Positions 8,207 through 26,202 of a DNA stretch of 32,000 bases are shown here, piece by piece. Position 1 is the stretch's first letter. The number at the start of each line of letters is the position of its first letter. The DNA comes from Cupriavidus necator (GTDB lineage Bacteria > Pseudomonadota > Gammaproteobacteria > Burkholderiales > Burkholderiaceae). The position numbers and the translations under genes were made by a program. The notes below the pieces were generated by a model. It was not told the DNA's origin. It was given only the letters and a program-made list of their open reading frames with translations, and did no database searches. The stretch spans positions 3,390,001-3,422,000 of the forward strand of contig NZ_CP066018.1 in assembly GCF_016127575.1 (NCBI RefSeq), in the 5' to 3' direction.

Positions 8207-8308
8207 CAGTCGGAGGATGCCGCCGAGGGCAACTGAGCGCCTGGCGGGCTGCCACCGCGAAAGCGACGGTCGCCCCCCGGCAGCGGCCGGGAGGCTGGCG
8301 CTGACCGG

Positions 8309-8551
8309 CTAGCGCAGGTCGTACTCGCGCATCATTTCGGTCGTGACTGCCTTGACCGTGGCCAGGCATGCCGGCGGGACAGCGGGGAAGGCGTCGATGG
8401 TCCAGTTGCAGCCGCCGTTGGCAGTTGCGTCGACACGCTGCGGCAACGGGATGTCGCAGTCGCGGCAGGTGTCGCCGAGGTCGGCGTTTTCCTGCAGACG
8501 CCGCAGAATTTCATTGCGGATCTGTTCCGCACTGCCGAGGTTCTTGATCAT
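8309..8551 (-). CDS. Hypothetical 80-aa protein with four Cys
   Basis: AGGAGA lies 7 nt upstream of ATG 8551, and the gene starts 45 bp downstream of the nitroreductase on the same strand. Its composition is non-repetitive and unlike the Arg/Pro/Ala-rich shadow ORFs. Cys sites: CRDC, GGCNW, PPAC. I recognise no family. Confidence 0.6.
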   Translation of the reverse strand: MIKNLGSAEQIRNEILRRLQENADLGDTCRDCDIPLPQRVDATANGGCNWTIDAFPAVPPACLATVKAVTTEMMREYDLR

Positions 8552-8596
8552 GTCGGTGTCTCCTGTTGTCAGGTGGTGGCGATCCGGCCAGGATGC

Positions 8597-9262
8597 CTAG
8601 ACCGGCGCGCTGTCATGCGGAGCCGGACGCCCGATGGTCTGGGACAGGATCGGTTCCTCGTCCTCGTTCAGCGACATATGCTCGGCCAGCTGGCGCCGGT
8701 TAAGCCAGCCGCGCACCACCGCGCCCAGCCCGGCCGAGGCGCAGTAGAGATAGGCGTTCTGGACCATGGCGCCGGCCGCGGCGGCAGCGAAGGTCTCGTG
8801 CAGCTTGGGCGGGACGTCCTGCATCCGGCCATGGTTGGCGACGTAGACCAGGTCCAGCGGCGCCATGCCGACGAAGTCCTGGTAGCCGGTCATGCTGCGC
8901 ACGTCTGCCGCGCGCTTCAGCACCAGGCAATGGTGGATCGGGTCGTAGCGGTAGAGGCCGGCGGGCAGCGCCGCGTAGACGTCGATCACCGCCTCGCCGT
9001 GCGGCGAAGGGGCTGTGCGGCCGCCGCCCTGGGAGCGGTTGACGCCCGCCGCGGCCCACAGCAGCTCGCTCAGCTGCTGCAGTGGCAGCGGCTGCTCGTC
9101 GAACTCGCGGGTGCTCATGCGCTGCCACAGCGCCCCCATCAGCGGCAGGCCATTGGTGCGGTCCGGCTGTGGCAGGGCGATGACCCGCTCGCTCGTGCCG
9201 GAGGCGGGGCGTGGCAGCAGGTCCTTGATGGGCTGGTAGGGGATGCGCTTCAGTTCGTCCAT
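8597..9262 (-). CDS. SagB/ThcOx-type nitroreductase-family protein (paralogue of 2325..2930)
   Basis: Motifs: WQRMSTREF, LLWAAAGVNR, GGRTAPSPHG, GLYRYDPIHH, AGAMVQNAYLYCASAGLGAVV. Start is uncertain: ATG 9262 is chosen, with ATG 9274 and the track start 9313 as alternatives. Confidence 0.8.
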   Translation of the reverse strand: MDELKRIPYQPIKDLLPRPASGTSERVIALPQPDRTNGLPLMGALWQRMSTREFDEQPLPLQQLSELLWAAAGVNRSQGGGRTAPSPHGEAVIDVYAALPAGLYRYDPIHHCLVLKRAADVRSMTGYQDFVGMAPLDLVYVANHGRMQDVPPKLHETFAAAAAGAMVQNAYLYCASAGLGAVVRGWLNRRQLAEHMSLNEDEEPILSQTIGRPAPHDSAPV

Positions 9263-9444
9263 GGGAGCTCGCATTTGTTGCAAAGAGCGGCGCGAGCGCT
9301 CTGCGCATGGCACCGGTATGGACGAATGTAGGCGCTGCCCCCGGCCGTGGATTGCGCTCCGTCAAGCAGCGTCGATGGGGCCTTCCCTGGTGTGAAAGCA
9401 AGGGGTGCTGGCGCTGCTTTAGATGGCGGCGCCGAGCTCTGGCG

Positions 9445-11875: not shown

Positions 11876-11889
11876 TTGACAGGCATCAA
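11876..11889. promoter_or_regulatory. Near-consensus FNR/FixK box TTGAC-AGGC-ATCAA
   Basis: 9/10 match to TTGAT-N4-ATCAA. It lies in the 448-bp divergent region, with centre ~120 bp upstream of the lipoprotein ATG 12003 and ~330 bp from the LRAT ATG. Confidence 0.55.
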
Positions 11890-12002
11890 CCCGTATGTCC
11901 GGCCGGACGCTACCTTCCGGTAACCGAAGATCACCGCCACTACGGGCATTTCAATGCGTTGTCGGAGGGACGAAACTGGAGATTACGTGGAGCTTTGTAC
12001 GC

Positions 12003-12476
12003 ATGCTCTCGTCCCTGATGATTGCCGTAGCTGCTGCGGGTTGTGCGTTCCGCTATGGGCAAGCCGGATCATACTTGCAGCCAATGGCCGAATATGGCGT
12101 CTCGTATGTGTCGGGCGGGGACAGCGAAGCCGGCATGGACGCGATGCTCGCCATCGCGGACCGCTTCAACGTACGTCTGACCATGGTGGACGCCGCACGC
12201 GGGGACCCGCTGCCGGATGCTGCCATCCTCGTGTCCAGTCAGGACGGGCGCTCGATATTGCATGCGAGCGCAACCGGGCCGATGTTCTATCTCCGGCTTC
12301 CCACGGGCGTCTATTGGCTGGCAATTGGTTATCAGGGCTGGGTCCGGACCCGCGATATCGCCGTCGACGGCCAGGCACTCGACATGACGTTTCGCCTGCC
12401 CGTGAGGACGCTGGAGGACGACTGGCTGCTTTGCAGCTCGCCGCGCGGCAACGTCGCGGTTACCGCCGTCTGGTGA
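12003..12476 (+). CDS. Putative lipoprotein with carboxypeptidase-regulatory-like beta-sandwich
   Basis: Track ORF 11895..12476 trimmed to ATG 12003 (GGAG ~10 nt upstream). Lipobox-like IAVAAAGC. The pattern MFYLRLPTGVYWLAIGYQGWVRTRDIAV...MTFRL resembles CarboxypepD_reg-type domains. The n-region has no positive charge, so the start and lipoprotein status are uncertain. Confidence 0.5.
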   Translation: MLSSLMIAVAAAGCAFRYGQAGSYLQPMAEYGVSYVSGGDSEAGMDAMLAIADRFNVRLTMVDAARGDPLPDAAILVSSQDGRSILHASATGPMFYLRLPTGVYWLAIGYQGWVRTRDIAVDGQALDMTFRLPVRTLEDDWLLCSSPRGNVAVTAVW

Positions 12477-12521
12477 CGCCATCTCAGCTTCGCCATCAAT
12501 TACCACCGTCGGCGCAGAACG

Positions 12522-14822
12522 TCACTCCGTGGGCGCATCTTCGCGCAGCGCATGGAACAGCTCGTCCTCCTGCGCGCAGTGCAGCCGCAATACGGCCTCG
12601 AGCCCGTAGAGCAGCCGCTGGTACTCCCTGACCCTGCCGGCGTCTGGCCCATCCGGCGGTGAGTCGTCCGCCATCCGCTGCAGTAGCCGGATCACCCGGA
12701 AGATCTCGCGGTGCATCGCGCTCATCGCCGCCAGCGGATCCTCGCCTCCGACCAGCAGCGCGAGTTGCGGATAGAGCTGCGCGTCATCGTGCTGTTCGTG
12801 GGGCAAAAGTGTTCCGCTGAGGGATGCGCACAAGCGGCGCAGTTCCGTGCCCGCGGCGTGGCCAGGCATGGCTGGCAACCTGTCCGCGAGGCTGCGGATC
12901 TGTTCCATCAGCGGCGCCAGCGCGGCGTGCTCCTGGTTCAGGCGCTCGGCGTCGGCCGTGGACAGGCGTTCCGCCGGCACCGACGGGTCGGCGCGCAGGG
13001 CGCGCAGCGCATTGGCAATGACCAGCACATCGATGACCTCCTGCAGCATGGCGCCGGCCAGTGGCGGCAGGTAGCCGAACGCGGCGACCGCCATCGCGAC
13101 GAACGACAGGCCCATGCCGGCCATGGCGCTTTGCACGGCCAGCCGGCGCGACCGGCGGGCGATGCGCACCGCGTCCACCAGCCGGTCAAGCCGGTCCACC
13201 AGCAGCACGACATCCGCGGCTTCCGACGATGCCGCGGCACCTCGTGCGCCCATGGCCACGCCGACGTCCGCGGCGGCCAGCGCCGGTGCATCGTTCACGC
13301 CGTCGCCCACCATCAGCACAGTGCCGTCGTGGCGCGCCGCCTCGATCGCGGCAAGCTTCTGCGAGGGGGTGAGGTTGGCATGGACCTCGGTCACGCCCAG
13401 CATCGCGCCGACGGTCTCGGCGACGTCGAGCCGGTCTCCCGTGAGCATGGCCAGGCGCCGTATGCCCGCCTTGCGCAGCAAGCGCAACGCGCGCGGGGTG
13501 TCCATGCGAATCAGGTCCACGAACTGCAGTGCCCCAACCAGCACGCCGTCGACGGTGACCAGCGAGACCGAGGCGCCTTCGAAGGCCGCGCGCTGCAACA
13601 TGGCCTGGCACCACGGTGGCCCGGCATCGCCGCCGCCGGCAAAGGCGGGCGATCCCACCGCCACCACGTGCTCGCCAACCCGCCCGGCAATGCCAGCACC
13701 GGCGGTCTCGGTCACGCCTGACGGCAGGTCCAGGGCCAGGCCTCGCTCGCGCGCCGCGGTCGTGATGGCTTCGGCGACAACATGCCCGGAGGCCTGGGAC
13801 AGCGAAGCGGCGACGCGCAGCACGTCGGGCGCCGGCCATCCGGGCGCGCTCTCGATGGCCGCCAGGCGGGCCCTTCCGCCCGTCAGCGTCCCGGTCTTGT
13901 CGAAGAAGAGGATGCTCGCCTGCGACAACCTTTCAAGCGCGCCGCCGCCCTTGACCAGCACGCCGCGCCCGGCGCAACGCGACACCCCGGACACAATCGC
14001 CACCGGAACGGCCAGGATCAACGGACAAGGGGTGGCGACCACCAGCACCGCCAGCGCCCGCGCGAGTTCACCACTGGCAAGCCAGGCAAGCCCGGCGACG
14101 AGCAGGGTGACAGGCACCAGCCACAGTGCATAACGGTCGGCCAACCGCGCCGCGGGCGGGCGCTCCGCGCGGGCGGTGCGCACCAGCCTGGCGATGCCGG
14201 CGAAGGTGCTGTCTGCCGCGGTGGTCGCTGCCACCATCTCGAACGGGGTGCCGGCGTTCAGCACACTGCTGCGCACGGTCTCGCCAGGGAGTCGCTGCCG
14301 TGGCAGCGACTCGCCAGTCAGGGCAGATTCGTCCAGCGTCGCCTGGCCCAGCAATGCGCCGTCCACGGGTACGACTTCGCCATGCCGGACCAACAGGCGA
14401 TCCCCCGGACTGACCACATCGAGGGAAACCGCGCGCCATTCTCCGTCCTCGAAGCGGTTGGCGGACTGCGGGGCGCGGCTGAGCAGGGCGGACATCTCCC
14501 GCTCGGAACGGGCCTGCGCATAGTTCTCAATGGCCCTGCCGCTCTCGATCATCAGGGCCAGTACGGCAGCCGCGAGGAATTCGCCAAGCGCCAGCGCCAG
14601 CCCGATCGCCAGCAGCGCCAGGACATCGACGCCCGCTTCCTTCCGGCGCAGCGACCGCACGATGGCGACGATCAGCGCGCCGGCGACGACCAGCGCGCCA
14701 ACCGCCCAAGCGAGCCTCGCGGCGAGCGCTTCGCCGAAGGCAAAAAGCAGCAAGCCAGCGCCCAGCGTGCCGGCCGCGACTGGCAGCAAGCCGAGGTCAA
14801 ACTTGCGAAACCCGATGTGCAT
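12522..14822 (-). CDS. P1B-5-type heavy-metal P-type ATPase with C-terminal hemerythrin (HHE) domain
   Basis: [17 protein letters not shown], and transmembrane TPCP (VVATPCPLILAVP) instead of CPC. There is no N-terminal metal-binding domain. The last ~150 aa carry His/Glu hemerythrin motifs (NQEHAAL, LPHEQHDD, MHREIF, LHCAQEDELFH). Start placed at ATG 14822 (CAGGGGA upstream); the track start 14933 is a GTG without an RBS. Confidence 0.85.
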   Translation of the reverse strand: MHIGFRKFDLGLLPVAAGTLGAGLLLFAFGEALAARLAWAVGALVVAGALIVAIVRSLRRKEAGVDVLALLAIGLALALGEFLAAAVLALMIESGRAIENYAQARSEREMSALLSRAPQSANRFEDGEWRAVSLDVVSPGDRLLVRHGEVVPVDGALLGQATLDESALTGESLPRQRLPGETVRSSVLNAGTPFEMVAATTAADSTFAGIARLVRTARAERPPAARLADRYALWLVPVTLLVAGLAWLASGELARALAVLVVATPCPLILAVPVAIVSGVSRCAGRGVLVKGGGALERLSQASILFFDKTGTLTGGRARLAAIESAPGWPAPDVLRVAASLSQASGHVVAEAITTAARERGLALDLPSGVTETAGAGIAGRVGEHVVAVGSPAFAGGGDAGPPWCQAMLQRAAFEGASVSLVTVDGVLVGALQFVDLIRMDTPRALRLLRKAGIRRLAMLTGDRLDVAETVGAMLGVTEVHANLTPSQKLAAIEAARHDGTVLMVGDGVNDAPALAAADVGVAMGARGAAASSEAADVVLLVDRLDRLVDAVRIARRSRRLAVQSAMAGMGLSFVAMAVAAFGYLPPLAGAMLQEVIDVLVIANALRALRADPSVPAERLSTADAERLNQEHAALAPLMEQIRSLADRLPAMPGHAAGTELRRLCASLSGTLLPHEQHDDAQLYPQLALLVGGEDPLAAMSAMHREIFRVIRLLQRMADDSPPDGPDAGRVREYQRLLYGLEAVLRLHCAQEDELFHALREDAPTE

Positions 14823-15246
14823 GGCGAACCCGATCCCCTGCGTAACTGGCGCCGGTTGCTGGGATACTCCCGCTGATGCCTTCAGGCGATCGCAGATCCT
14901 GCCGCGCTGGCGGCTGCGCAATCCCGGCTGCACGCCGAATCAGGCACTGTGTAATGGTGATGTTAGTCCAACAGGCACCGGGCCGATAATAGCCTCGGCC
15001 GCAGGCAGGGCGCGCCAGCCAGCCCTGGAGATAGTCGATGGCTGCAGGGGCCGCGGTTCGCGGCGCCACGGAGATGATTCGGCACGGCGCGGACCCGCAG
15101 TGGCTGTCGGCGGTACTGCCGTATTCGCTCACTCCTTGATGCACGCGGCGATTACGGCGCATTTTCGGTTCAAATTGCGCTTTGGCCGGTGCCGCCCTAT
15201 ATATTTGGGGGGCGAGAAGCACTCTCAGACAATCATCGTCCATTCC

Positions 15247-16971
15247 ATGAGCAACCCTTTGGCGCCCGCGGGCAAGGTGCAGCCTTCGTCCGAACGTTCT
15301 CACTCCCTTGCCATGGCGATTGGCAGTGTGACGGTCGTTCTCGTCCTCGCGGGGGGATGCTTCTTGATGGCTACCGTCGAATGGTATCGGCAGTTCCTGG
15401 CGCCGTTGGTGCTCTTGACGGGCGCAGGCATCGGGCTCGCCGTGGGACTTTACTGGAACCGGTTGAGGAAGCTTACAGGGAGTAGTGATATCCAACGCGT
15501 GGCGGATAGCGAAGCCCAGTTGGCGGGGATCATCCGATCTTCGATGGAAGCGATCATCACCGTGGACGGTGACCAGCGCGTCGTACTGTTCAATCCCATG
15601 GCAGAAACGCTATTCGCCTGGCCGGCCGAACTTGCAATCGGGCGCTCCCTGAGCGACTTCATTCCCCACCGCTTTCGGGCCGCCCATGCAGAGCATGTGC
15701 GCCGGTTTGGGATCACGGGCGTTTCGGACCGCGAGATGGGACTCCAACGGGCGCTGTGCGCCATGCGTCGGGACGGAAGCGAGTTCCCTATCGAAGCATC
15801 CATTTCACAGATCTCTGTCGGCGAGGCCAAGTTATACACTGTGATGCTGCGCGATATCACCGAACGCGTGCGTGCTGAGGAAGCCCTGCACCGAAGCCTT
15901 CAGCTTGTGAAGGAAAGCGAGGCGCGATTGGCGGGAATTATCCGCTCCTCCATGGAAGCGATCATCACCGTGGACAATGAACAACGCGTAGTGCTGTTCA
16001 ACCCAATGGCGGAGACGTTGTTCGCCTGGCCCGCCGAACTCGCGATTGGCCGCCCCCTCGGCGACTTCATTCCCGAACGCTACCGGGCCGCTCATGAGGA
16101 GCACGTGCGTCGGTTTGGGATCACGGGCGTATCGGATCGTCAGATGGGACGTCAACGGGCACTCTACGCTCTGCGTCGTGACGGCACTGAATTCCCTATC
16201 GAAGCATCCATCTCGCAAACGGCCCACGAAGGCACGAAGCTATATACCGTGATGCTGCGTGATATCACGGAGCGGGCACGCGCGGAGGCGGCCCTGCGCC
16301 GCTCACGGGAAGAACTGCAACAGCTTTCAGATGGGATACTCGCTGCCCGCGAGGAGGAGAGGCGCCGCATTGCACGCGAGCTGCACGATGACCTGGGCCA
16401 GCGCCTGAGCGCGCTTAAGATGGACATGGCTATGCTCGGCGCGGACGTCGATGAGGGCCGTGACACAGCAGGACTGCTAGACGAGATTGGTGCCATAAAC
16501 GGCGTCATCGACAATACTGTTGCCTCGGTCCGACGCATTGCCAGTGACCTACGGCCGGCCTTGCTGGACGAGTTGGGAATGATTCCTGCCATTGAGTGGT
16601 TGGCCGATGATTTTGCCAACCGGTACGGATTGGCGGTGAGCGTGGACGGTGCCGAGGCTGACGTCCCCGCGCAGACGGCAATCGCCATGTTCCGCATTGT
16701 CCAGGAGGCATTGAGCAATGTCGTCCGGCATGCCGACGCGACCACCGTGCATATTCAGCTCACCCAGTCAGAGGGCCAACTTGTGTTGCGGGTGCAAGAC
16801 AATGGGGTGGGCTGGGACAAGGTCTCCTCCGCAAGCGGGCCACGCAAATCGCTGGGACTCCTTGGCATCCGGGAGCGGGCACGCCTTCTGGGTGGCAGCT
16901 TCACCATCGACAGCACTCCCGGCAAGGGCTTTTGCCTAATCGTGCAAATTCCCCACGAAAGGGTGGCCTGA
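15247..16971 (+). CDS. Membrane-anchored sensor histidine kinase: 2 TM, tandem FixL-like PAS, HisKA_3, HATPase_c
   Basis: The 813-aa track ORF is trimmed to ATG 15247, because the upstream part is antisense to the ATPase gene. Two hydrophobic helices with a ~7-aa loop. H-box ELHDDLGQRLSALK is NarX/DevS-type HisKA_3. N/G boxes: EALSNVVRHA, DNGVGW, GLLGIRERA. No RBS is obvious, so the start is approximate. Confidence 0.85.
   Translation: MSNPLAPAGKVQPSSERSHSLAMAIGSVTVVLVLAGGCFLMATVEWYRQFLAPLVLLTGAGIGLAVGLYWNRLRKLTGSSDIQRVADSEAQLAGIIRSSMEAIITVDGDQRVVLFNPMAETLFAWPAELAIGRSLSDFIPHRFRAAHAEHVRRFGITGVSDREMGLQRALCAMRRDGSEFPIEASISQISVGEAKLYTVMLRDITERVRAEEALHRSLQLVKESEARLAGIIRSSMEAIITVDNEQRVVLFNPMAETLFAWPAELAIGRPLGDFIPERYRAAHEEHVRRFGITGVSDRQMGRQRALYALRRDGTEFPIEASISQTAHEGTKLYTVMLRDITERARAEAALRRSREELQQLSDGILAAREEERRRIARELHDDLGQRLSALKMDMAMLGADVDEGRDTAGLLDEIGAINGVIDNTVASVRRIASDLRPALLDELGMIPAIEWLADDFANRYGLAVSVDGAEADVPAQTAIAMFRIVQEALSNVVRHADATTVHIQLTQSEGQLVLRVQDNGVGWDKVSSASGPRKSLGLLGIRERARLLGGSFTIDSTPGKGFCLIVQIPHERVA
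15511..16308 (+). repeat. Tandem in-frame duplication (period 408 bp) encoding the two PAS modules
   Basis: Copy 1 starts ~15511 and copy 2 ~15919. By my hand alignment 104 of 125 aligned residues are identical (83%). Identical 20-24 nt runs include atggaagcgatcatcaccgtggac, cggtttgggatcacgggcgt and ttccctatcgaagcatccat. Confidence 0.85.
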
Positions 16972-17036
16972 TGCGACATGCCTCATGATTGGGGATGGCA
17001 TCGCAGTTGTCCGGAATCAAGCCCCCATGTGCCGGG

Positions 17037-17105
17037 GTAATTCTGGCGATTGTAATTGCGAACGCCGCGACCGGCTTCATTCAGGACGGCAAGGCGGAAA
17101 AAAGC
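17037..17105 (+). pseudogene. Short remnant of a P2-type (CtpF/Ca-Mg-like) P-type ATPase, TM2 region
   Basis: VILAIVIANAATGFIQDGKAEKS matches the very conserved P2-ATPase block ..V..NA.vGFiQE.kAE.al. The similarity is lost on both sides. Only ~23 codons, so low confidence. Confidence 0.35.
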
Positions 17106-17281
17106 CACGGACCGTTTCGGCACCGGCGACGCTACGCCGAATGCTTTGCAGACACTCACTCCATTCTGCTGCTGCAGCGGAACTGCCGTCGCAAGAGCGA
17201 CGGCCGGACGGCAAGGGGCTGGCAGGTTTGCGGTCTGACGGGATTAGTCCGCACGAGGGCCAAACCTTACGGCTAGACCCA

Positions 17282-17842
17282 TCATCCGCCTGGCGCCATC
17301 TTTCCACCCATGCCCGGACCCATCCCCGGCCCCATGCCCGGACCCATGCCCGGACCCATGCCCATGCCCGGGCCCATGCCTTGGTCGTTGGCCATCGTCT
17401 GCATCATTTCCTGCATGAACGCCATGTGACTACCCGCCATGTCTTGGCACATCTGCATTTGATTTGATGGGGCGTTTCCCTTGGCGACTCTCTTGCCAGG
17501 AGCCATACGAGCAGGGCCGCCCATTTTCATCATGTCCTTTTGCATGATGGCCATTGCATCTTGCATGACCTGATGGCGTTCAGCCAAGAGGGCCTGACGC
17601 TCCTCCGGCGTTTTGGCACGCGAAAGCCGCTCTCTGATGGCACGCAGGTGGGCAACCTGGGCGTCCAGCTTTGCATCGCTGGAAACTCCGGGAGTTACGA
17701 CCGGAGCCTTATCTTGCCGCTTTTCAGGATGGTGCTGCTCATGCTCAATGCCGGTAGCCGGCGACGCCGGGAAAGCTGCTGGCGCCCACGCTAGCACGGC
17801 GGCCGCAGTGATAAGGGTAGAGAGGCGATGGTTGGTGGACAT
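17282..17842 (-). CDS. Secreted Met-rich protein with C-terminal (GPGM)n repeat; possible periplasmic Cu(I)/metal-binding or CpxP/Spy/ZraP-like protein
   Basis: 186 aa. RBS AGGAGGA. Signal peptide LITAAAVLAWAPAAFPA|SP. I counted 23 Met in the C-terminal ~105 residues. Tail: GMGPGMGMGPGMGPGMGPGMGPGMGGKM. The function is inferred from composition only. Confidence 0.7.
   Translation of the reverse strand: MSTNHRLSTLITAAAVLAWAPAAFPASPATGIEHEQHHPEKRQDKAPVVTPGVSSDAKLDAQVAHLRAIRERLSRAKTPEERQALLAERHQVMQDAMAIMQKDMMKMGGPARMAPGKRVAKGNAPSNQMQMCQDMAGSHMAFMQEMMQTMANDQGMGPGMGMGPGMGPGMGPGMGPGMGGKMAPGG
17309..17380 (-). repeat. In-frame 12-nt coding microsatellite (CATGCCCGGNCC on the + strand = GPGM), five units plus two 6-nt half-units
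   Basis: Units at 17309-20, 17321-32, 17333-44, 17345-56 and 17363-74. Half-units catgcc at 17357-62 and 17375-80. Confidence 0.85.
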
Positions 17843-17907
17843 GGGAGATCCTCCTATGAAAACATGATGGTTCCTAGTCCAAGGTATGCGGCGGTCAGGG
17901 ATTTGAG

Positions 17908-17921
17908 TTGATTGGGATCAA
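17908..17921. promoter_or_regulatory. Perfect FNR/FixK consensus box TTGAT-TGGG-ATCAA
   Basis: 10/10 match. Centre is 72.5 bp upstream of the Met-rich protein ATG (17842). This fits a class II (-41.5) activator site with a ~30-nt leader. Confidence 0.75.
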
Positions 17922-17964
17922 CGAAGCGATGGGTGTACCGGGTGTTCAGTCCCATCGATGTGCT

Positions 17965-17998
17965 GGTCTGCGCAGGAGCAATCTGCGCAGACCATTTT
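17965..17998 (+). terminator. Intrinsic-terminator-like hairpin: 11-bp perfect stem GGTCTGCGCAG / CTGCGCAGACC, 7-nt loop, then ATTTTG
   Basis: Stem 17965-75 and 17983-93, followed by ATTTTGC on the + strand only. There is no + strand gene upstream, so its role is unclear. Confidence 0.35.
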
Positions 17999-18214
17999 GC
18001 GGATGCCCTCAGCAGCAATGCTCCGGTTGCCAGGAAACGGTCTGGCCAGGAACAAATCCGGCGGCGGAATACCTGGAAATCGACTATGAGGGCAGCAAGT
18101 CAGCGGGAACCGTATAAAGCGCCACTTCGCCCGTCGGCGCCAGCCCTGCGGCGCATTGTTTGTTCCTCTGCCACGCCTCTATCCAACTGCACTTCGCTGC
18201 CAGTGCCGGCGTGC

Positions 18215-18658
18215 TTACGCCCGTTGCATGCTTGATTTGGCGCGCTCCGCGACGTCGAACACGAGCATGCCAGCCACCATTGCTGCCACAAAGCCAATGG
18301 CCTTCGGATAGCCAGCGCCCAGGGCAACCAGCGCGGGACCAGGGCAGAAGCCGGCCAGACCCCAGCCGACGCCGAAGGCGGCGCTGCCCAGTACCAGCCG
18401 CAGCGTTACGGCCGTGCTGGCCGGCAGTTGCACAGGCAGCCCCAGGAAGGAGTGTTTGCGGTGTTTGGCGATGAGGAAGGCGAGCGAGCCAATGGCAATG
18501 GCACCGGCCATCACAAAAGCGAGGGACGGGTCCCAGGTTCCTGCAAGGTCAAGAAAGCCCAGCACCTTGGCCGGGTTGGCCATGCCGGAGACCATCAGGC
18601 CAATGCCAAATAGCAGGCCTGCGACGAGTGCAGTCATGGCGGTCATATCAGCCTCCAA
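18215..18658 (-). CDS. YeeE/YedE-family (DUF395) half-size sulfur-compound transporter subunit
   Basis: 147 aa, four hydrophobic helices, GFCPGPALVALG motif. Overlaps the upstream paralogue by 11 nt. Confidence 0.8.
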   Translation of the reverse strand: MEADMTAMTALVAGLLFGIGLMVSGMANPAKVLGFLDLAGTWDPSLAFVMAGAIAIGSLAFLIAKHRKHSFLGLPVQLPASTAVTLRLVLGSAAFGVGWGLAGFCPGPALVALGAGYPKAIGFVAAMVAGMLVFDVAERAKSSMQRA

Positions 18659-19082
18659 TCAGGTGCCGTTGCACGAAGACAGTCAGGAATCCCGCCACCA
18701 TGAAGGTGAGGGTGGCGACCAGCGAGCGGATGGAGCCGCGCGAGATGCCGCACACGCCATGGCCGCTGGTGCAGCCGCTGGCGTAGCGGGTGCCAAGGCC
18801 GACCAGGAAGCCGGCGGCCAGGATTTCGCCCCAGCTTGCCTGGATATCCGCAATGGCGGGCTTGCCGAGCAGGCTCGCAATCACAGGAGCGCCAACCAGG
18901 CCAGCGAGGAAGGTCAGGCGCCAGGCCATGTCCTTTCGAGGCAGGCTAAGCAGGCCGCCGAAGATGCCGCTGATGCCGGCAATGCGGCCGTTGAACAGCA
19001 GCAGCACAGCGGCCGCCGCACCGATGATGAGCCCGCCGACCAGTGACAGGCCGGGCGTGAAGTTAGCGAGGTCAATCAGCAT
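18648..19082 (-). CDS. YeeE/YedE-family (DUF395) half-size sulfur-compound transporter subunit
   Basis: 144 aa. GTRYASGCTSGHGVCGISRGS motif typical of the family. Overlaps the bigR-like gene by 7 nt. Confidence 0.8.
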   Translation of the reverse strand: MLIDLANFTPGLSLVGGLIIGAAAAVLLLFNGRIAGISGIFGGLLSLPRKDMAWRLTFLAGLVGAPVIASLLGKPAIADIQASWGEILAAGFLVGLGTRYASGCTSGHGVCGISRGSIRSLVATLTFMVAGFLTVFVQRHLIGG

Positions 19083-19414
19083 GTCGCCTCCTGATCGGGG
19101 TTGGCACAGAACTGTTCATAAAGGACCGCCATGACGGCAAGCGCCTGGGGGCTCGCCACCGAATAGAAGATGTTCTTGCCGTCACGGCGCGTGGCCACCA
19201 GGCTGTTCTCGCGCAGCACACCGAGCTGTTGAGACAGCGTCGGCTGCCGGATGCCGAGCTGTTCCTCCAGCTCACCGACAGACAGCTCGCCTTGGGACAG
19301 GCGGCACATCAGCAGCAGGCGGTCCGGATTGGCAAGCACCTTGAGCAGGGTACAGGCCTGCGCCGCAGCAGCTTGCATGCTGGCGAGGTCGATGGCGGGG
19401 TGGGGCTGGTCCAT
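19076..19414 (-). CDS. bigR: ArsR-family winged-helix repressor, BigR-like redox/persulfide switch
   Basis: 112 aa. wHTH region SVGELEEQLGIRQPTLSQQLGVLR. Cys37 (LLMCRL) and Cys103 (EQFCAN) are 66 residues apart, the same spacing as the Cys42/Cys108 pair I recall for Xylella BigR. The genomic context is YeeE x2 plus a divergent blh. Confidence 0.8.
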   Translation of the reverse strand: MDQPHPAIDLASMQAAAAQACTLLKVLANPDRLLLMCRLSQGELSVGELEEQLGIRQPTLSQQLGVLRENSLVATRRDGKNIFYSVASPQALAVMAVLYEQFCANPDQEATC

Positions 19415-19437
19415 AGGTCGTTTACATTTTGCTTGTT

Positions 19438-19478
19438 AATATTATATTGAAAAATAGAATGTATGTGAATAGAATGTA
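19438..19478. promoter_or_regulatory. AT-rich divergent promoter/operator candidates: palindrome AATAT-T-ATATT and direct repeat AATAGAATGTA x2
   Basis: Palindrome at 19438-19448. 11-nt direct repeats at 19453-63 and 19468-78 (15-bp period). These lie in the only 84 bp between bigR and blh, a segment that is strikingly AT-rich for this genome. Confidence 0.4.
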
Positions 19479-19498
19479 CTGCATCCAAGGAGGCGAGC

Positions 19499-20359
19499 AT
19501 GCACCCGACTATCCAGCCGTTCTTCGACCCTGCGACCTGGACTGTGACGTACGTGGTCTTTCAGGAGGGGCGCCCCGAGTGCGCCATCATCGACTCGGTG
19601 CTGGACTACGACCCCAAGGCGGGTCGGACATCGACGGCAAGTGCTGATAAGGTTGTTGCGTTTGTGCGCGCGCATGGACTGAGAGTCGAGTGGATTCTCG
19701 AGACGCACGCGCATGCTGACCACCTGTCTGCCGCGCCGTACCTGAAGCGACACCTGGGTGGCCAGACAGCAATAGGCCAGAACATCCGCAACGTACAGGG
19801 GGTCTTCAAGACGCTCTTTAACCTGGAGCCTGAGTTTCGGCTCGACGGGTCGCAGTTCGACCACCTGTTTGACGACGGAGCGACGTTTGCCATCGGCGGC
19901 CTGACCGGCAGGGCGATTCATGTGCCAGGGCATACACCCGCCGACATGGCTTACCAGATTGGGGACGCGGTCTTTGTCGGCGATACGCTGTTCATGCCGG
20001 ACGTCGGCACGGCTCGCTGCGATTTCCCGGGCGGCGACGCACACGAGTTGTATCGCTCCATCCGCAAGCTGCTGGACCTGCCGAGCAATACACGGCTCTT
20101 TATGTGTCACGACTATCCGCCCGAGGGGCGCGGGCCTGCATGGGAAACGACGGTGCGCGCTCAGCGCGAAGGCAATATCCACGTGCATGACGGCGTGAGC
20201 GAGGAACAGTTCGTGGCCATGCGCCGGGCGCGCGATGCGACGCTGGCGATGCCGACGCTGCTTCTGCCGTCGGTGCAAGTCAATATACGAGCCGGGGAGT
20301 TGCCGCCGCCCGATGCGAATGGCGTTCGCTATCTAAAAATCCCTCTGGACGTCATCTGA
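19499..20359 (+). CDS. blh: MBL-fold hydrolase, Blh/ETHE1-like persulfide dioxygenase candidate
   Basis: 286 aa. RBS AAGGAGG. Metal motif THAHADH and a later HVPGHTPAD. Divergent from bigR, as in BigR-type sulfide detoxification loci. Confidence 0.8.
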   Translation: MHPTIQPFFDPATWTVTYVVFQEGRPECAIIDSVLDYDPKAGRTSTASADKVVAFVRAHGLRVEWILETHAHADHLSAAPYLKRHLGGQTAIGQNIRNVQGVFKTLFNLEPEFRLDGSQFDHLFDDGATFAIGGLTGRAIHVPGHTPADMAYQIGDAVFVGDTLFMPDVGTARCDFPGGDAHELYRSIRKLLDLPSNTRLFMCHDYPPEGRGPAWETTVRAQREGNIHVHDGVSEEQFVAMRRARDATLAMPTLLLPSVQVNIRAGELPPPDANGVRYLKIPLDVI

Positions 20360-20755: not shown

Positions 20756-21559
20756 TCACTTCGAAATCGCCCCGCTCAGAAGATGTTCCTCTGCATAAGG
20801 AAACACAACTTCCGGATTAGGGCGAATCAGCTCAGCGTCCTTGTGCGCATAGTGAAGGCGGGTCAGTAGATCCTTGATGACGCTGAGGCGTGCGACATGC
20901 TTGTCGTCGGCGCGCACGACGTTCCATGGCACGATGTCGCTGGTTCGAGCAAACATCTCGTTCCGTGCCTTACTGTATTTCTTCCAAAGCGATACCGCTT
21001 GTTCGTCAATGGGGCTGACTTTCCACTGTTTTAGCGGGTCCCGGCGGCGCTCTTCGATGCGCTTCTTCTGTTCGGCCTTGCTGATGTCAAGGTAGTACTT
21101 GATAAGACGAATTCCGGAACGCACGAGCATCCGTTCGAACTCTGGGACACTTGCCATGAACTCCTCATGCTCGTCCTTGGTGCAGAAGCCCATCACATGT
21201 TCCACACCGGCCCGGTTGTACCAACTGCGATTGAAAAGGGTGAACTCGCCGGCCGCAGGCAGCTCGGCCGCATAGCGGCGGAAGTACCAGGAGCCTCGGT
21301 CACGGTCGGATGGCTTCCCCAGTGCGACGACGCGCGTTTCACGCGGACTGAGGTGTTCGACAATGCGCTTGATGGTCCCATCCTTCCCAGACGCATCCCT
21401 TCCCTCAAAAATCACCAGAATCCGGTCGCTGCAGGAAATGAAGTGCTTCTGTAGTTTGACCAGCTCGATTTGAAGCAGGTGGAGATTCTCCTCATAGCTG
21501 TCATGGGAGAGGGCGCTTGCCTCGGATGGAGCCGTCTTGCTACTTGTCTTCATTTTCAT
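20756..21559 (-). CDS. ppk2: Polyphosphate kinase 2 (single-domain PPK2)
   Basis: 267 aa. RBS GGGAGGTG. Walker-A-like FEGRDASGKDGTIK, followed by FNRSWYNRAGVEHVMGF and the lid region. Confidence 0.9.
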   Translation of the reverse strand: MKMKTSSKTAPSEASALSHDSYEENLHLLQIELVKLQKHFISCSDRILVIFEGRDASGKDGTIKRIVEHLSPRETRVVALGKPSDRDRGSWYFRRYAAELPAAGEFTLFNRSWYNRAGVEHVMGFCTKDEHEEFMASVPEFERMLVRSGIRLIKYYLDISKAEQKKRIEERRRDPLKQWKVSPIDEQAVSLWKKYSKARNEMFARTSDIVPWNVVRADDKHVARLSVIKDLLTRLHYAHKDAELIRPNPEVVFPYAEEHLLSGAISK

Positions 21560-21990
21560 GGTTCACCTCCCTTGAGTCGGGCGCATCGGGTGGGAAAGGG
21601 TGGGGCTTTCCAGGTGAAAGCGGGGTAACTTTTTCGTTGAGCAACAGCTCCAGCGAAGGGCGGTCTACGACCTCCTGTTCGAGCAGTAGCTTTGCCAGCG
21701 CGTCTGGCTTGTGCCGGTTTGCCAGCAATGTTTGCTTCACCCGCTGACTGGCGTCGCCCAGAATCGTCCGCACTTCTGCATCAATGATTTGCGCAGTACT
21801 CTCGCTGTACTCTTTGCGTTGCCGAGGCATTGGCAGCTTCGAGGTCCTGGACCAGATTGGGGTCGTTGACCCGAAGCGTGGAGAAGGGGTGGTCTCCCTT
21901 TCCCTGGCGCAACATCTCTTCGACCTGTGGCTTGGGGAGCAGAGTCTCAATGCCAGTGGTGACACGAGCTCGTAAAGAGCTGTGGCGCAA
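21540..21990 (-). pseudogene. ftsH: C-terminal remnant of an FtsH-family protease (frameshifted, N-terminally truncated)
   Basis: One frame reads RKEYSESTAQIIDAEVRTILGDASQRVKQTLLANRHKPDALAKLLLEQEVVDRPSLELLL, the FtsH C-terminal helical region (compare ..SDETARIIDQEV...L...ETID). An upstream piece, VTTG...GDHPFSTL...PNLVQDL, is in another frame. The AAA and zinc-protease cores are absent. Confidence 0.6.
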
Positions 21991-22020
21991 GGACTTGGAG
22001 TCATATCGCCATTCTTGGTA

Positions 22021-22287
22021 TCAGGTCTCTCCTTGAAGGCTGTTGTGTAACCATGCAAAGAATGCCCCGGCAGCGAAGAACCACACCGCAAACACAAAGG
22101 CTGGATAGATGATGGACCACCACGATACTGATTCGCCGGTCTGAAGGCGCCGGAAATCGAGCCCGTGAAAGAGCGCGTTCATGAAATTCATGAAGGGCTC
22201 AGGAAGAACCATCCAGACGAGCGTGCATAGAACGTAGAACAGCACGACCGTGGCGGATAGCGTCAAACCAGTCTTGAAGGGTTTCAT
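22021..22287 (-). CDS. Small multi-pass membrane protein (resembles what RefSeq labels DUF5676; recalled from memory)
   Basis: Track ORF trimmed to ATG 22287 (GGAGG 6 nt upstream). 88 aa with hydrophobic segments LTLSATVVLFYVLCTLVWMVL and IIYPAFVFAVWFFAAGAFFAW. Confidence 0.6.
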   Translation of the reverse strand: MKPFKTGLTLSATVVLFYVLCTLVWMVLPEPFMNFMNALFHGLDFRRLQTGESVSWWSIIYPAFVFAVWFFAAGAFFAWLHNSLQGET

Positions 22288-22323
22288 GGCAGCCTCCGGG
22301 TGCAAGGAAGATGACGGTTGAAT

Positions 22324-22992
22324 TCAATGAGGACGCGTCCGCGGAACATCTCGGGCTGAGATATGCGGAATGAACGCTGGTGTCTTTTGGCGATATTCCT
22401 CATATGCTTGCCCGAACTCGGCCAGTGCGTCCTGCTCCTCCGACTTGGCCAGCCGAACATACATCCAGACCAGGATGGGGAACATCACCAGAGTGACTAT
22501 CGTCGGCCACTGCAGCAGGAAGCCGAACATAATCAGGACGAACGCGACATACTGGGGGTGCCTCATGCGCGCATAGAGACCAGTGGTCGCCAGGCGGTGC
22601 TGCTGCTGGGCCAGGTACAGAATGCGCCAGGCGGAAGACAGCATGATGAAGCCGCCAAAAATCAAGATGTCGCTGGCGATGTGAAATGGCCCCAGGTGCG
22701 GGTTGCCCCTCCAGCCGAAAATCATCTCCGGAAGATGACCGGCATCATGCGAGAGGAAGTCGATTCCCGGGAATTTCGCCGAAAGCCACGGTAGCAGGAG
22801 ATAGATACTCAGGGGGATGCCATACATCTCTGTAAAGAGCGCCACAATGAACGCGGAGAACGCGCCAAACGAGCGCCAGTCGCGCTGGGTCTTCGGCTTG
22901 GTGAAGCTGAAGGCGAAGATGATGAAGACAGCTGAGTTGATAATGACCAGCGACCAGAGACCGTAGCTGGATTGTGTTTCGGGTTGCATCAT
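22324..22992 (-). CDS. Integral-membrane ICMT/PEMT-family SAM-dependent methyltransferase
   Basis: 222 aa, multi-pass. Family motif TGLYARMRHPQYVAF, followed by EEQDALAEFGQAYEEYRQKTPAFIP. The start overlaps the DUF2933 stop (ATGATG/TGA at 22987-22992). Confidence 0.8.
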   Translation of the reverse strand: MMQPETQSSYGLWSLVIINSAVFIIFAFSFTKPKTQRDWRSFGAFSAFIVALFTEMYGIPLSIYLLLPWLSAKFPGIDFLSHDAGHLPEMIFGWRGNPHLGPFHIASDILIFGGFIMLSSAWRILYLAQQQHRLATTGLYARMRHPQYVAFVLIMFGFLLQWPTIVTLVMFPILVWMYVRLAKSEEQDALAEFGQAYEEYRQKTPAFIPHISARDVPRTRPH

Positions 22993-23249
22993 CGCTCTCC
23001 TTTGGCGTTCGTGTCCTTGGTGGCGTCATCCGGTCCGTGACCGTGTCGATGTCCACCGTGCATGAAGATGTGCATTAAGGGGCAGGCGGCCAGCAGAAGA
23101 AATGGCAGGAACTGAATGACGTGTGCCCGGTGTTCAGTCCATAGGAAGTAGGCAATCACCAGCAGAAAGCCAATCATGACCAGCTTGGACCTGGCCACGG
23201 TGCGCAGTGCGTCGCCAGGCCGCTCATGACCGTTGTGGTCGTGGTTCAT
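22989..23249 (-). CDS. DUF2933-like His-rich small membrane protein
   Basis: 86 aa. N-terminal MNHDHNGHE, two TM helices, then ACPLMHIFMHGGHRHGHG. Confidence 0.7.
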   Translation of the reverse strand: MNHDHNGHERPGDALRTVARSKLVMIGFLLVIAYFLWTEHRAHVIQFLPFLLLAACPLMHIFMHGGHRHGHGPDDATKDTNAKGER

Positions 23250-23439
23250 GTTTTCCTCCTATAAAGCGAACGCCGTACCGCCTGGCAGCAGCCATGGTGC
23301 CGATGACGTAGGTGTATGTATCTCGCTTGGTCTTGCTGAAAAACTGTTCGCCGTTCCGCCAAGCAGGAGCCAAGTGAGACTCTGTGATAACCAGTTCATA
23401 GACCCTCTCTTCAACCTTTGTCTTGGCGTTCACGCTCAA
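23224..23439 (-). CDS. Questionable 71-aa ORF (TTG start, no RBS), unknown function
   Basis: It fills the only gap in the array and overlaps both neighbours (29 and 26 nt). Its composition is protein-like ([42 protein letters not shown]), unlike shadow ORFs. No credible start signal was found. Confidence 0.25.
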   Translation of the reverse strand: MSVNAKTKVEERVYELVITESHLAPAWRNGEQFFSKTKRDTYTYVIGTMAAARRYGVRFIGGKHEPRPQRS

Positions 23440-23626
23440 CTGCGTTTCGTATATCGCGCTCGCACTGTCGCGAAAGGCGAAGACTCAACCACACCACAAC
23501 GACCGGACAGGACAGCAGGAGTAGGCCAACCAGTATGGTGAACGGTGTCAGCCCAAACCGGTAGACGATAGCTGCCGCGAGTAGCATTGCAAAGGCAGCG
23601 CAAATCCATGCCACCGGGTGTTTCAT
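23411..23626 (-). CDS. Small two-TM membrane protein translationally coupled to the Cu ATPase
   Basis: 71 aa. Its ATG overlaps the ATPase stop (ATGA, 23623-23626). Two hydrophobic helices, then a charged tail [19 protein letters not shown]. Confidence 0.55.
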
Positions 23627-26106
23627 CTCGCCTCCAGGCTGGCAATTCTGGCGCCAAGTCGTACACGCTTCAGCAATGCGGAGTTGGCTACCACACTCAA
23701 TGAGGACAGTGCCATTGCTGCTGCGGCAAAGATGGGGTTCAGGAGTCCAAGTGCGGCGATAGGGATGCCGATGGTGTTGTAGATGAACGCCCAGAAGAGG
23801 TTCTGTTTGATTTTGCGCATCGTCGCGCGGGACAGCTCAATGGCGGCAACCACGTCACGCACGTCATCGCGAATGAGGATGATGCTCCCAGTTTCCTTCG
23901 CGACATCCGAGCCTGAGCCGATGGCAATGCCGATGTCCGCTGCGGCAAGCGCCGGTGCGTCATTGACGCCGTCTCCCACCATGGCCACGACCTCCCCTTG
24001 CTTCTGTAATGCGTGAATGGTCTCGACCTTGTCTTCCGGCATCACCTCGGCAATGACATGCTCAATGCCAACCTGCCGGCCGATTGCCTCGGCGGTGCGG
24101 CGGTTGTCACCGCTCAGTAGCACAACCTTGATGGCGCGCGCCTTCAATGCCGCGATTGCCTCGCTCGCTTCCGGTTTCACAGTGTCAGCCACGGCCACTA
24201 CGCCGAGCAATTGTGTGCCGGCGCCGACCAGCATGGCTGTCTTGCCATCGGCCTCGAGCTTCCCGAGTACAGATTCGGCCGATTCGATTGGGATGCCTTG
24301 GCGTGCAAAGAGACGCCGGTTGCCCAGCCAGACTTGCTGACCGTCGACGAGGCCCTGAATGCCCATGCCAGACAATGCGCTGATGCTGGCTGCCTTGGGA
24401 ATGGTGAGCGCGCGATACTGTGCGGCGCGCACGATGGCTTCGCCCAAAGGGTGCTCGGACCCGGCTTCCACAGCGGCAGCAAGAGTCAGCAGGTCAGATT
24501 TCTCTCGCCCAGAAAGGGGGATGACATCGGTCAAGGTCGGCTCTCCGCGCGTAATCGTCCCGGTCTTGTCAAAGACAACCGCGGTGAGCTTCTCGGCCCG
24601 CTCCAGCACTTCACCGCCGCGTATCAGGATGCCGTTGTCCGCGCCCTTGCCGACGCCGACCATCAGCGCTGCTGGCGTGGCGACGCCTAGCGCGCAGGGG
24701 CAGGAGATAATCAGAACAGCCACGAATGCGAGCAGTCCCTGCGGAAAATGACCGGCGACGGTCCATCCCACTAATGCCAGCATCGCGACCGAAACAACCG
24801 CAGGTACGAAGTAGCCGGTGACCTGGTCCGCCAGTCTCTGAATCTGCGCGGTGCTGGCCTGGGCGTCCTCGACCATCCTGATAATCTGAGCGAGAGCGGT
24901 GTCCGCTCCGATTTTTGTGGCCTGGAAGGTGAAGGCGCCACTGCGGTTTAGCGTGCCGCCAATGACAGCGGCACCAGGCTTCTTTTCCACGGGCATCGAC
25001 TCGCCGGTCAGCATCGATTCATCGACACTGGATTGGCCATCGATAACCTTGCCATCAGTGGGAATCTTCTCGCCGGGGCGTACAACGACCGCTTCGCCCA
25101 CCATGATGCTTTCAGCCGGGATTTCCACCTCCGTCCCGTCGCGAAGCACGTGAGCGACGGCGGGGCGCAGGTCGAGCAGGCGTCGAACAGCGGCGGAGGA
25201 TTTCTTCTTGATGATTTCCTCCATGTATTTCCCCAGCAGCACGAAGGCGATAATGACCGCCGACACCTCAAAGTAGACGTCTCGCTCTTCGACCTTGACG
25301 GGCAGCCAGGACGGAAAGAACAGCACTACTACGCTGTAGAAGTAGGCGACGGACGTCCCCAGGGCGATGAGGAAGTCCATATTGATATTGCGCGTCCGGA
25401 TGGCGTTCCATGCGCCCTTGTAGAAGCTCCAGCCGCCAATGAACTGGACCGGCGTGACGAGAAGGAATAGCCACATCCCCCACGTGAACCAAGGCAGGGC
25501 GGGAATCGGGGCCCAAGTCACGAGCGTCGCGCCGGCTGCCAGTGCCAGGAAGGCGCCAGCCCGCAGCACCGCCAGCGCGAGCACGCCCGTGAGCGCAATG
25601 GTCACGCGCGTCTTCATGGCTTTCAACTCGCTCTCTGGCGACTCGAAGGTCCGAAGGCAGCTCTCGCTGCAGAAGTAGTACTTGCGGTTGCCACGCTCGG
25701 CGGAGAGGGCCGTAGCCTTGTCCACCATCATTCCGCAAATAGGGTCCTTGGCGAGTTGCTTGGCGGCGTGGGAAGCAAGCGCGGGCGTCGCCGCAGGGAT
25801 AGGAGCGACGCCGGGTGGGCTAGGACTGCGGGAGGGCCCAGCCGAGCTACGCCTATCAACGGGGTGAAGAACATATTTCGCCGGGTTGGCTAGGAAAACC
25901 TGCTCACAGTGTGGAGAGCAGAACCAGTATCGCTTCTGGTCGAGCTCCGTGCTGGTAGCGGCCTCCCGTGGGGAGATCTCCATGCCACAGACCGGGTCAC
26001 GCACGAGCTGCTGCGAGGCGGCCGGGCCTGCGGCGGCCGTTGGAGCTGCCTGGGCTTCGGTGAGGCCGTAACTCCCCCCATTAGGGGTGGTGGACTTGGT
26101 CGGCAT
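23623..26106 (-). CDS. Cu(I)/Ag(I)-type P1B-1 P-type ATPase with two N-terminal YHS/TRASH domains
   Basis: 827 aa. RBS AAGGAGAGG. Two copies of DP(V/I)CGM...(Y/W)FCS..C. Transmembrane CPC (IISCPCALG), YN (FIYNTIGIP) and [12 protein letters not shown] signature. DKTGTIT and [10 protein letters not shown] present. No HMA (CxxC) domain. Confidence 0.9.
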
Positions 26107-26188
26107 TCCATCCTCTCCTTGGGGCTATTAAGAGGGGCTGCAGCGCATAAATTACATTTTCATTCTGGGTGACCAGTCGATTTGCTTC

Positions 26189-26202
26189 TTGATTTCAATC
26201 AA
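26189..26202. promoter_or_regulatory. Perfect FNR/FixK consensus box TTGAT-TTCA-ATCAA
   Basis: 10/10 match. Centre is 89.5 bp upstream of the ATPase ATG (26106), within the 240-bp gap after the SAM synthetase gene. Confidence 0.75.

Follow-up and report, generated by a model that had tools for sequence, protein, structure and literature searches.

The 32,000-nucleotide (nt) stretch of Cupriavidus necator DNA analysed here (contig NZ_CP066018.1, positions 3,390,001 to 3,422,000 of the forward strand; hereafter the window, with coordinates counted from its first letter) carries a gene for an exported methionine-rich protein (Met-rich protein) whose promoter contains a perfect FNR/FixK-type dyad. 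Class II FNR sites of Escherichia coli are centred at −41.5. In the fnr1 promoter of Herbaspirillum seropedicae, the site is centred at −42 (PMC5934665). The predicted promoter of the Met-rich gene resembles the class II promoters of FNR, Anr and FixK in three respects: the dyad would stand in for the −35 element, a weak −10 hexamer follows 21–22 nt downstream, and an FNR protein with four cysteines and an E--SR recognition motif is encoded on a near-identical replicon. It differs from the known class II FNR targets in its product, an uncharacterised exported protein that is not reported in any FNR regulon.

In Bradyrhizobium diazoefficiens, an operon for a DUF2933 protein, an ICMT and a hypothetical protein (bsl7992-bll7991-bll7990), together with the adjacent mat gene (bll7989), is FixK2-dependent under micro-oxia and carries FixK2 boxes (PMC9104804). 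The window likewise encodes DUF2933, an ICMT-like protein and an archaeal-type methionine adenosyltransferase (22021–23249 and 26347–27531) with FNR-type boxes, but here they occur together with a Met-rich protein and an ATPase for Cu(I) that has YHS domains. The top 120 profile matches of the Met-rich protein include no Bradyrhizobium protein that would tie bll7993 (a hypothetical protein with a FixK2 box) to the family. In Burkholderia cenocepacia H111, micro-oxia induces a copper P-type ATPase 11.5-fold (PMC3759415). The lxa locus of B. cenocepacia has an Anr/Fnr-like motif, described as TGA-N6-TCA, and comprises a cation-transporting ATPase, an FtsH-type Zn protease, a nitroreductase and a two-component sensor kinase (PMC3721108). 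The window has the look of a similar low-oxygen-type island, with Anr/Fnr-like dyads, a cation ATPase, an FtsH remnant, a nitroreductase and a PAS histidine kinase; it differs from lxa in the Met-rich gene, for which homologue and profile searches found no Burkholderia counterpart. In Herbaspirillum, Fnr controls fixI (PMC3759049).

The Met-rich protein is exported, rich in methionine and genetically linked to copper efflux, as are PcoE/SilE, CusF, the Met-rich region of CueO, and CopI. Unlike these, it is built of three predicted helices with Met stripes and a TPEERxAL turn, is neither a cupredoxin nor an OB fold, and shares no detectable sequence or fold kinship with any of them. The copper defences known so far depend on copper sensors (CueR, CusRS, CopRS) for their induction, and binders of the PcoE/SilE, CusF and CopI type stand under such control, not under that of FNR. 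CopI of Rubrivivax gelatinosus matters under micro-aerobic and anaerobic conditions (PMC4600104). Anaerobic copper hypertoxicity is described in a further report (PMC9040851), in agreement with the premise of an initial annotation of this locus that copper is more toxic anaerobically. In Alteromonas and other gamma-proteobacteria, copper islands have the composition merR-copA-cupredoxin-DUF2933-ICMT, those of Alteromonas being reported as copper-induced (PMC8478169). The core shared with the window consists of a Cu P-type ATPase, a small periplasmic protein, DUF2933 and ICMT; where those islands have a cupredoxin and a MerR-type copper sensor, the window has a helical Met-rich protein and an FNR-type site.

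The FNR-type box and the promoter of the Met-rich gene

The Met-rich gene and the elements assigned to its upstream region are the following.

17282–17842, minus strand: exported Met/Gly-rich protein of 186 amino acids with a signal peptide, an EHEQHHP motif, three predicted helices bearing Met stripes and a GPGM-repeat tail; no Pfam or NCBIfam match
17908–17921, palindrome without assigned strand: perfect FNR/FixK-type dyad TTGATTGGGATCAA, read as TTGATCCCAATCAA on the minus strand, identified by 10/10 specified positions and by its conservation
17881–17886, minus strand: predicted −10 hexamer TACCTT, 21 nt 3′ of the box, at a conserved TAnnnT position
17873–17875, minus strand: predicted transcription start, placed from the −10 hexamer; relative to it the box is centred at about −40.5 to −41.5, and the leader is some 31–33 nt long
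17850–17855, minus strand: Shine-Dalgarno sequence AGGAGG, 7 nt 5′ of the ATG and conserved in the promoter alignment
17964–17994, no strand assigned: perfect 12-bp inverted repeat TGGTCTGCGCAG-N7-CTGCGCAGACCA with a 7-nt loop, 43 nt 5′ of the box

The box is identical to TTGAT-N4-ATCAA at all ten of the ten specified positions, and its centre at 17914.5 lies 72.5 nt 5′ of the A of the ATG (17842, minus strand). The initial annotation had given this match and this distance, had derived a leader of about 31 nt from a −41.5 architecture, and had counted the site as the second perfect box of the window. Match and distance are exact, the leader arithmetic holds (start near 17873), and the other perfect site, at 26189–26202, precedes the ATPase gene. 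These two are the only perfect sites in the 32-kb window, against an expectation of 0.02 per window, and none of 100 dinucleotide-preserving shuffles attains two. Sites with at most two mismatches are likewise in excess, with 14 in the window against 4.3 expected, a number that 0/100 shuffles attain. One of the two-mismatch sites, at 17007, sits between convergent genes and was treated as a chance occurrence.

For the promoter comparison, homologues of the Met-rich protein were collected and 80 genomic loci were fetched. The window is ~96% identical to plasmid p1 of C. necator C39 over the 3.5 kb tested, and 90–95% identical to the megaplasmids of C. necator N-1, Cupriavidus sp. KK10 and C. 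oxalaticus. Across the Cupriavidus/Ralstonia orthologue loci, whose protein identity ranges from 85% down to 43%, an FNR-type box is present 71.5–84.5 nt 5′ of the ATG in 13/13 cases. Four of these boxes match perfectly and eight deviate at a single position; the remaining one is the symmetric variant TTGAC-N4-GTCAA (12/13 with at most one mismatch, 13/13 with at most two). Over 598 kb of these loci, sites with no more than one mismatch have a background rate of 1.3e-4 per position, so that an interval of 14 positions is expected to carry a match in about 0.2% of loci. Both the N4 spacer and the sequence flanking the box vary from lineage to lineage. A TAnnnT hexamer (TACCTT, TATAGT, TACATT or TAGACT) stands 21–22 nt 3′ of the box in every Cupriavidus/Ralstonia orthologue. 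When the window-type promoters are aligned with those of C. taiwanensis and C. neocaledonicus (alignment A2), the conserved blocks are limited to the box, CCGCATACCTTG and the Shine-Dalgarno/ATG region; CCGCATACCTTG is invariant in this alignment, and the sequence 5′ of the box is unalignable. The Variovorax homologue, at 28% protein identity, has a perfect box 57.5 nt upstream, and eight Polaromonas-type loci have the two-mismatch site TTGACATGGATCAT (TTGACATGGATCAG in one of them) at ~79 nt. Taken with its rarity in the window, this comparison argues strongly that 17908–17921 is a functional site of the FNR family, and we hold this assignment with high confidence.

Read along the minus strand, the promoter elements follow in the order box (17921–17908), 21 nt, TACCTT (17886–17881), some 6–7 nt, predicted start, leader, AGGAGG and ATG (17842). 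With the hexamer set at −12 to −7 the box centre falls at −40.5, and a shift by one nt moves it to −41.5, the start itself being placed from the hexamer. A consensus scan of 16900–18300 found no sigma-70 −35/−10 pair on either strand, as is expected because class II promoters depend on their activator. An Rfam search of 16800–18400 returned no match. The perfect inverted repeat at 17964–17994 is retained, with central changes, by the closest relatives (C39 and locus L001) but has been lost from, or never existed in, the promoters of C. taiwanensis and C. neocaledonicus. The YeeE operon lies upstream, and its transcript probably ends, or is terminated, at this repeat. A second, imperfect inverted repeat (17916–17933 with 17951–17968) overlaps the box.

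The Met-rich family and its copper ATPase neighbours

The N-terminus of the Met-rich protein resembles a Sec signal peptide, with a cleavage site before residue 28 judged by eye. The mature part, from residue 28 onward, consists of 14.5% Met and 14.5% Gly, in line with the secreted Met-rich product proposed in the initial annotation. Several members of the family bear lipoboxes instead of a Sec-type signal, which supports export. AlphaFold2, run on a 35-sequence alignment, predicts helices at residues 55–75, 79–107 and 126–154 with a predicted local distance difference test score (pLDDT) of 75–95 in the core and 64.5 overall; the first 50 residues and the GPGM tail are disordered in the model. 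In an alignment of 24 sequences from Burkholderiales, Acinetobacter and others, the invariant or nearly invariant residues are H34 and H38 of the EHxxHHP motif, the T78-P79-E81-R82-L85 turn, the methionines M93, M97 and M100 of helix 2, and M140, M143, M146, M147 and M150 of helix 3. Within the predicted helices, the Met spacing of i, i+3/4 and i+7 would put thioethers along one face of each.

Scans with Pfam and NCBIfam assigned no family to the window protein, to the 35 members of alignment A1 or to three distant members (from Acinetobacter, Polaromonas and an uncultured Comamonas). A profile search yields at least 2,625 clusters at 90% identity, and all named ones among the 120 matches listed are called 'hypothetical protein'. 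Judged by these searches, the Met-rich proteins are a large family, unnamed in these records and not modelled in Pfam or NCBIfam.

Two known protein types were considered and rejected. Membership in the Spy/CpxP/ZraP group (LTXXQ, PF07813; Metal_resist, PF13801) finds no hidden Markov model (HMM) match and no significant fold neighbour. The window protein and 34/35 members of alignment A1 have no match to PF07813 or PF13801 even at E up to 1, the only matching member being the outlier P0060, and Foldseek against the PDB returns generic helical bundles only (best E 0.2). The protein has a single LTXXQ-like element (KTPEERQAL, residues 77–85), located at the turn between helix 1 and helix 2, where the Spy type has two such motifs in a curved, dimeric helical hairpin. 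The label 'LTXXQ motif family protein' on one homologue record in UniRef is not supported by the HMM or structure searches. A PDB sequence profile search found no family member and gave one spurious 40-residue match to a MarR protein. For a disordered Met/His sponge of the PcoE/SilE type there is no Pfam, NCBIfam or PDB match either, and the protein has MxxM/MxxxM stripes on predicted helices, not HxxM/MxxH repeats.

The copper-related module of the window lies at higher coordinates on the same strand.

23623–26106, minus strand: Cu(I)-type P1B-1 ATPase with two N-terminal YHS/TRASH domains and CPC/YN/MxxSS motifs; TIGR01511 match of 601 bits against a cut-off of 397
22021–23626, minus strand: genes 3′ of the ATPase, namely a 71-amino-acid membrane protein (23411–23626), DUF2933 (22989–23249), an ICMT-like methyltransferase (22324–22992) and DUF5676 (22021–22305)
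26189–26202, no strand assigned: the other perfect FNR-type box, TTGATTTCAATCAA, 89.5 nt 5′ of the ATPase ATG
26162–26167, minus strand: predicted −10 hexamer CAGAAT, 21 nt 3′ of the ATPase box

The signatures of the window YHS ATPase lie at residues 469 (CPC, the TM4 motif), 513 (DKTGT, the phosphorylation site), 776 (YN, the TM5 motif) and 798 (MALSS, the MxxSS motif of TM6). We take the CPC/YN/MxxSS combination to denote subgroup 1B-1 of the Argüello classification. The ATPases that adjoin other members of the Met-rich family carry the same Cu(I) signature. No FNR-type box was found in the 160-nt gap 5′ of DUF2933 in the window, so that co-transcription with the ATPase is the simplest reading, and the genes at 22021–23626 are probably transcribed together with it. 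The gene order downstream of the ATPase recurs in a Variovorax locus (L086).

Within 4 kb of the Met-rich gene, a P1B ATPase is encoded in most of the 80 related loci, and many add DUF2933 and ICMT. In Ralstonia, the Met-rich gene is followed by a Cu-type ATPase on the same strand, with DUF5676, ICMT and DUF2933 adjoining. In C. taiwanensis, it is divergent from DUF2933-ICMT-DUF5676 and followed by a hemerythrin-tailed ATPase, with a YHS ATPase nearby. Variovorax has copDCBA and then, divergently, the Met-rich gene, the YHS ATPase, a small open reading frame (ORF), DUF2933, ICMT and DUF5676. The Acinetobacter order is Met-rich gene, DUF2933, ICMT, ATPase. In the window, a BigR-like ArsR/YeeE/metallo-beta-lactamase cluster, PPK2 and an FtsH remnant separate the Met-rich gene from the ATPase module. 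The initial annotation had proposed that a potential Cu(I)/Ag(I)-binding protein is expressed together with a Cu(I) exporter under oxygen limitation. The link to copper is firmer than could be known then, with P1B-1 ATPase neighbours in most genomes and copABCD in Variovorax; Cu(I)/Ag(I) binding and a purpose in detoxification are still what we infer.

The box of the ATPase promoter recurs, equally far from the ATG, in C. taiwanensis and Variovorax, and in Variovorax perfect boxes precede both the Met-rich gene and the YHS ATPase. Furthermore, the spacing from box to −10-like hexamer seen in the Met-rich promoter is found again at YHS-ATPase and DUF2933 operons in C. taiwanensis, Variovorax and Ralstonia. 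Because the promoter geometry is identical and both boxes are conserved in C. taiwanensis and Variovorax, the predicted co-regulation of the Met-rich gene and the Cu(I) ATPase is supported. The archaeal-type methionine adenosyltransferase gene (26347–27531, minus strand) adjoins the ATPase and has one- and two-mismatch boxes upstream (27631–27673); the boxes at 27631 and 27660 lack the 21-nt spacing to a −10 hexamer that marks the class II promoters here, and were left unassigned. By analogy, the neighbourhood of mat and DUF2933-ICMT hints at a low-oxygen S-adenosylmethionine (SAM)-dependent methylation linked to the copper module.

Candidate activators and the proposed low-oxygen switch

No CRP/FNR gene was found in the window. 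Plasmid p1 of C39 encodes an FNR ~32 kb from the locus that is 40% identical to E. coli FNR. Aligned with the latter, the plasmid protein has a C-X2-C-X5-C motif (CTTCMMRNIC), a central cysteine (VVC) and an ETVSR recognition helix. The ETVSR helix reads TTGAT. Other fnr genes are present in C. oxalaticus, ~50 kb from its copy of the locus, and on pHG1 of C. necator H16. A search of the literature for anaerobic or FNR transcriptomes of Cupriavidus that cover the Met-rich gene found nothing usable.

An fnr homologue that is 41% identical to E. coli FNR lies directly 5′ of the Met-rich homologue, on the same strand, in two Polaromonas loci (3070–3735 in L042, 3232–3897 in L052), with no FNR box between the two genes in either locus.

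We postulate that an FNR-type dimer, an activator of the CRP/FNR family, would bind TTGATCCCAATCAA in place of the −35 element, as at a class II operator, and that the bound dimer would recruit RNA polymerase to the weak −10 hexamer TACCTT (17881–17886). Transcription would start near 17873 and produce a leader of ~31 nt with a strong AGGAGG ribosome-binding site. The likeliest activator is the [4Fe-4S] oxygen sensor Fnr. If it is Fnr, the Met-rich gene would be on when oxygen is limiting, along with the operon for the YHS Cu(I) P1B-1 ATPase, DUF2933, the ICMT-like protein and DUF5676. The Met-stripe protein would most likely bind periplasmic Cu(I), serving as a sink or as a chaperone partner of the Cu(I) pump when there is no O2-dependent copper oxidation. 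The transcription start, the activation, the oxygen signal, the copper binding and the physiological role are what we infer in this account, and as a whole, with an Fnr-driven class II low-oxygen switch and a periplasmic Cu(I)-partner role for the Met-rich protein, we regard it as probable. The regulatory part of the initial annotation is largely supported by the position-conserved footprint in Cupriavidus, Ralstonia and Variovorax, the class II −10 spacing, the geometry of the ATPase promoter and the plasmid-borne FNR; the signal it named, oxygen, is as presumptive as before, with nitric oxide (NO) as the alternative.

Several points weigh against this account. With the hexamer at −12 to −7, the conserved spacing places the box centre at −40.5, which is 1 nt off the canonical −41.5, and the −10 hexamer TACCTT agrees at 3/6 positions. 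A box is absent from some 30 Acinetobacter loci, from the majority of the other distant members and, overall, from most of the family outside the Burkholderiales, which suggests that FNR control is confined to certain lineages. The AlphaFold model of the Met-rich protein is moderate (pLDDT 64.5) and without a significant structural neighbour, and copper binding is deduced from composition and synteny. Finally, a motif that hardly differs, CTTGAT-N4-ATCAAG, is bound by NO sensors of the Dnr/NNR type in Ralstonia and Cupriavidus (PMC1274295), so that Fnr and Dnr are not separable from sequence alone, and the signal could be NO or denitrification.

It is thus conceivable that an NO-responsive paralogue of the Dnr/NNR type uses the same class II site, that denitrification is the inducing condition, and that the role of the genes is copper delivery to the periplasmic cuproenzymes NosZ and NirK, not detoxification. 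The ATPase box has exactly the C...G flanks of the Dnr type (gcTTGATTGAAATCAAga), whereas the flanks of the Met-rich box are G...C. An FNR-dependent P-type ATPase for cuproenzyme assembly, fixI, exists in Herbaspirillum (PMC3759049) and lends this role some precedent. However, the neighbours that were examined include no nos, nir or nor gene, and the Met-rich family occurs in copper-resistance contexts, such as copABCD in Variovorax and plasmids of the strictly aerobic Acinetobacter, a genus not known to denitrify. The related merR-copA-cupredoxin-DUF2933-ICMT clusters of Alteromonas are reported to respond to copper (PMC8478169). On these grounds we consider NO control unlikely.

A regulator of metal or envelope stress (CopRS, CueR or Cpx-like) might instead be the main driver, with the FNR-like site in a secondary or modulatory part. 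This would suit the many homologues that sit in copper-resistance clusters without an FNR box, and the one homologue record whose name, 'LTXXQ motif family protein', is Spy/CpxP/ZraP-like. Such a driver is improbable at this locus, where no independent sigma-70 promoter was found at the Met-rich gene, a non-exhaustive screen of the window ORFs tested found no metal-sensor gene, and the divergent Cupriavidus promoters have no second conserved operator upstream of, or between, the box, the −10 hexamer and the Shine-Dalgarno sequence. That the box is a chance or non-regulatory palindrome, for example part of a terminator of the upstream YeeE operon, could be read from the inverted repeats close to it (perfect at 17964–17994, imperfect at 17916–17933/17951–17968), but is highly improbable with 0.02 perfect sites expected per window and a box at the same distance from the ATG in loci without the upstream YeeE operon (C. 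taiwanensis, Ralstonia, Variovorax), where the inverted repeat is not conserved.

If the Fnr-driven switch is true, the oxygen sensor itself would pre-arm a Cu(I) pump and its periplasmic Met-rich partner, a second logic beside copper sensing. The promoter mechanism is textbook; the value lies in the content of the regulon and in an uncharacterised Met-stripe family tied to Cu(I) pumps. The locus offers a testable way into three widespread, functionally uncharacterised genes that accompany copper pumps, namely the Met-rich family, DUF2933 and the ICMT-like methyltransferase. A broader proposal can be made tentatively, and we hold it as a possibility that is open to considerable doubt: the Met-stripe family may be the dedicated periplasmic partner of the Cu(I) P1B-1 ATPase/DUF2933/ICMT module, and in Burkholderiales this module and the SAM synthetase may be wired to FNR, not to a copper sensor, as an anticipatory, anoxia-triggered defence against Cu(I).

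Other features of the window

Two further elements are a third FNR-type box and a repeat within the Met-rich gene.

11876–11889, plus strand: third FNR-type box TTGACAGGCATCAA, with one mismatch and TACCTT 21 nt downstream (11911–11916), ahead of the ORF 11954–12631
17306–17363, no strand assigned: 12-nt tandem repeat ACCCATGCCCGG in 4.8 copies, encoding the GPGM repeats of the C-terminal tail

The ORF at 11954–12631 encodes 225 amino acids without a Pfam match and, by its promoter sequence, is probably another member of the Met-rich/ATPase regulon. In the closest C. necator orthologue (P0001), 12 residues of the GPGM repeat are absent in the alignment, a gap that suggests a repeat-length polymorphism in the Met/Gly tail. 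The plus-strand ORF 16985–17467 was rejected as a gene, being an antisense reading of the GPGM repeats.

A further P-type ATPase (12522–14933, minus strand) is P1B-5-like, with a TPCP motif and, at its C-terminus, a hemerythrin domain; it adjoins a double-PAS HisKA_3 histidine kinase (15268–16971, plus strand). In C. taiwanensis the hemerythrin ATPase directly follows the Met-rich gene, so the order in the window is rearranged. Of an FtsH protease, only the final ~55 residues can be recognised at 21540–22097 (minus strand); in C. pinatubonensis FtsH is full-length and lies between PPK2 and DUF5676, which marks the window copy as a deletion remnant. The stretch 18215–20359 holds an ArsR/SmtB regulator, two YeeE/YedE half-transporters and a divergent gene of the metallo-beta-lactamase fold, a cluster of the sulfur-transport/detoxification type. 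As an insertion, it parts the Met-rich gene from the ATPase module, and it is conserved on plasmids of Ralstonia, Paraburkholderia and Caballeronia. Finally, a GroEL-like chaperonin, a DksA/TraR zinc-finger protein and a nitroreductase are encoded at 4291–9313, a set reminiscent of the dormancy-type low-oxygen locus lxa of Burkholderia.

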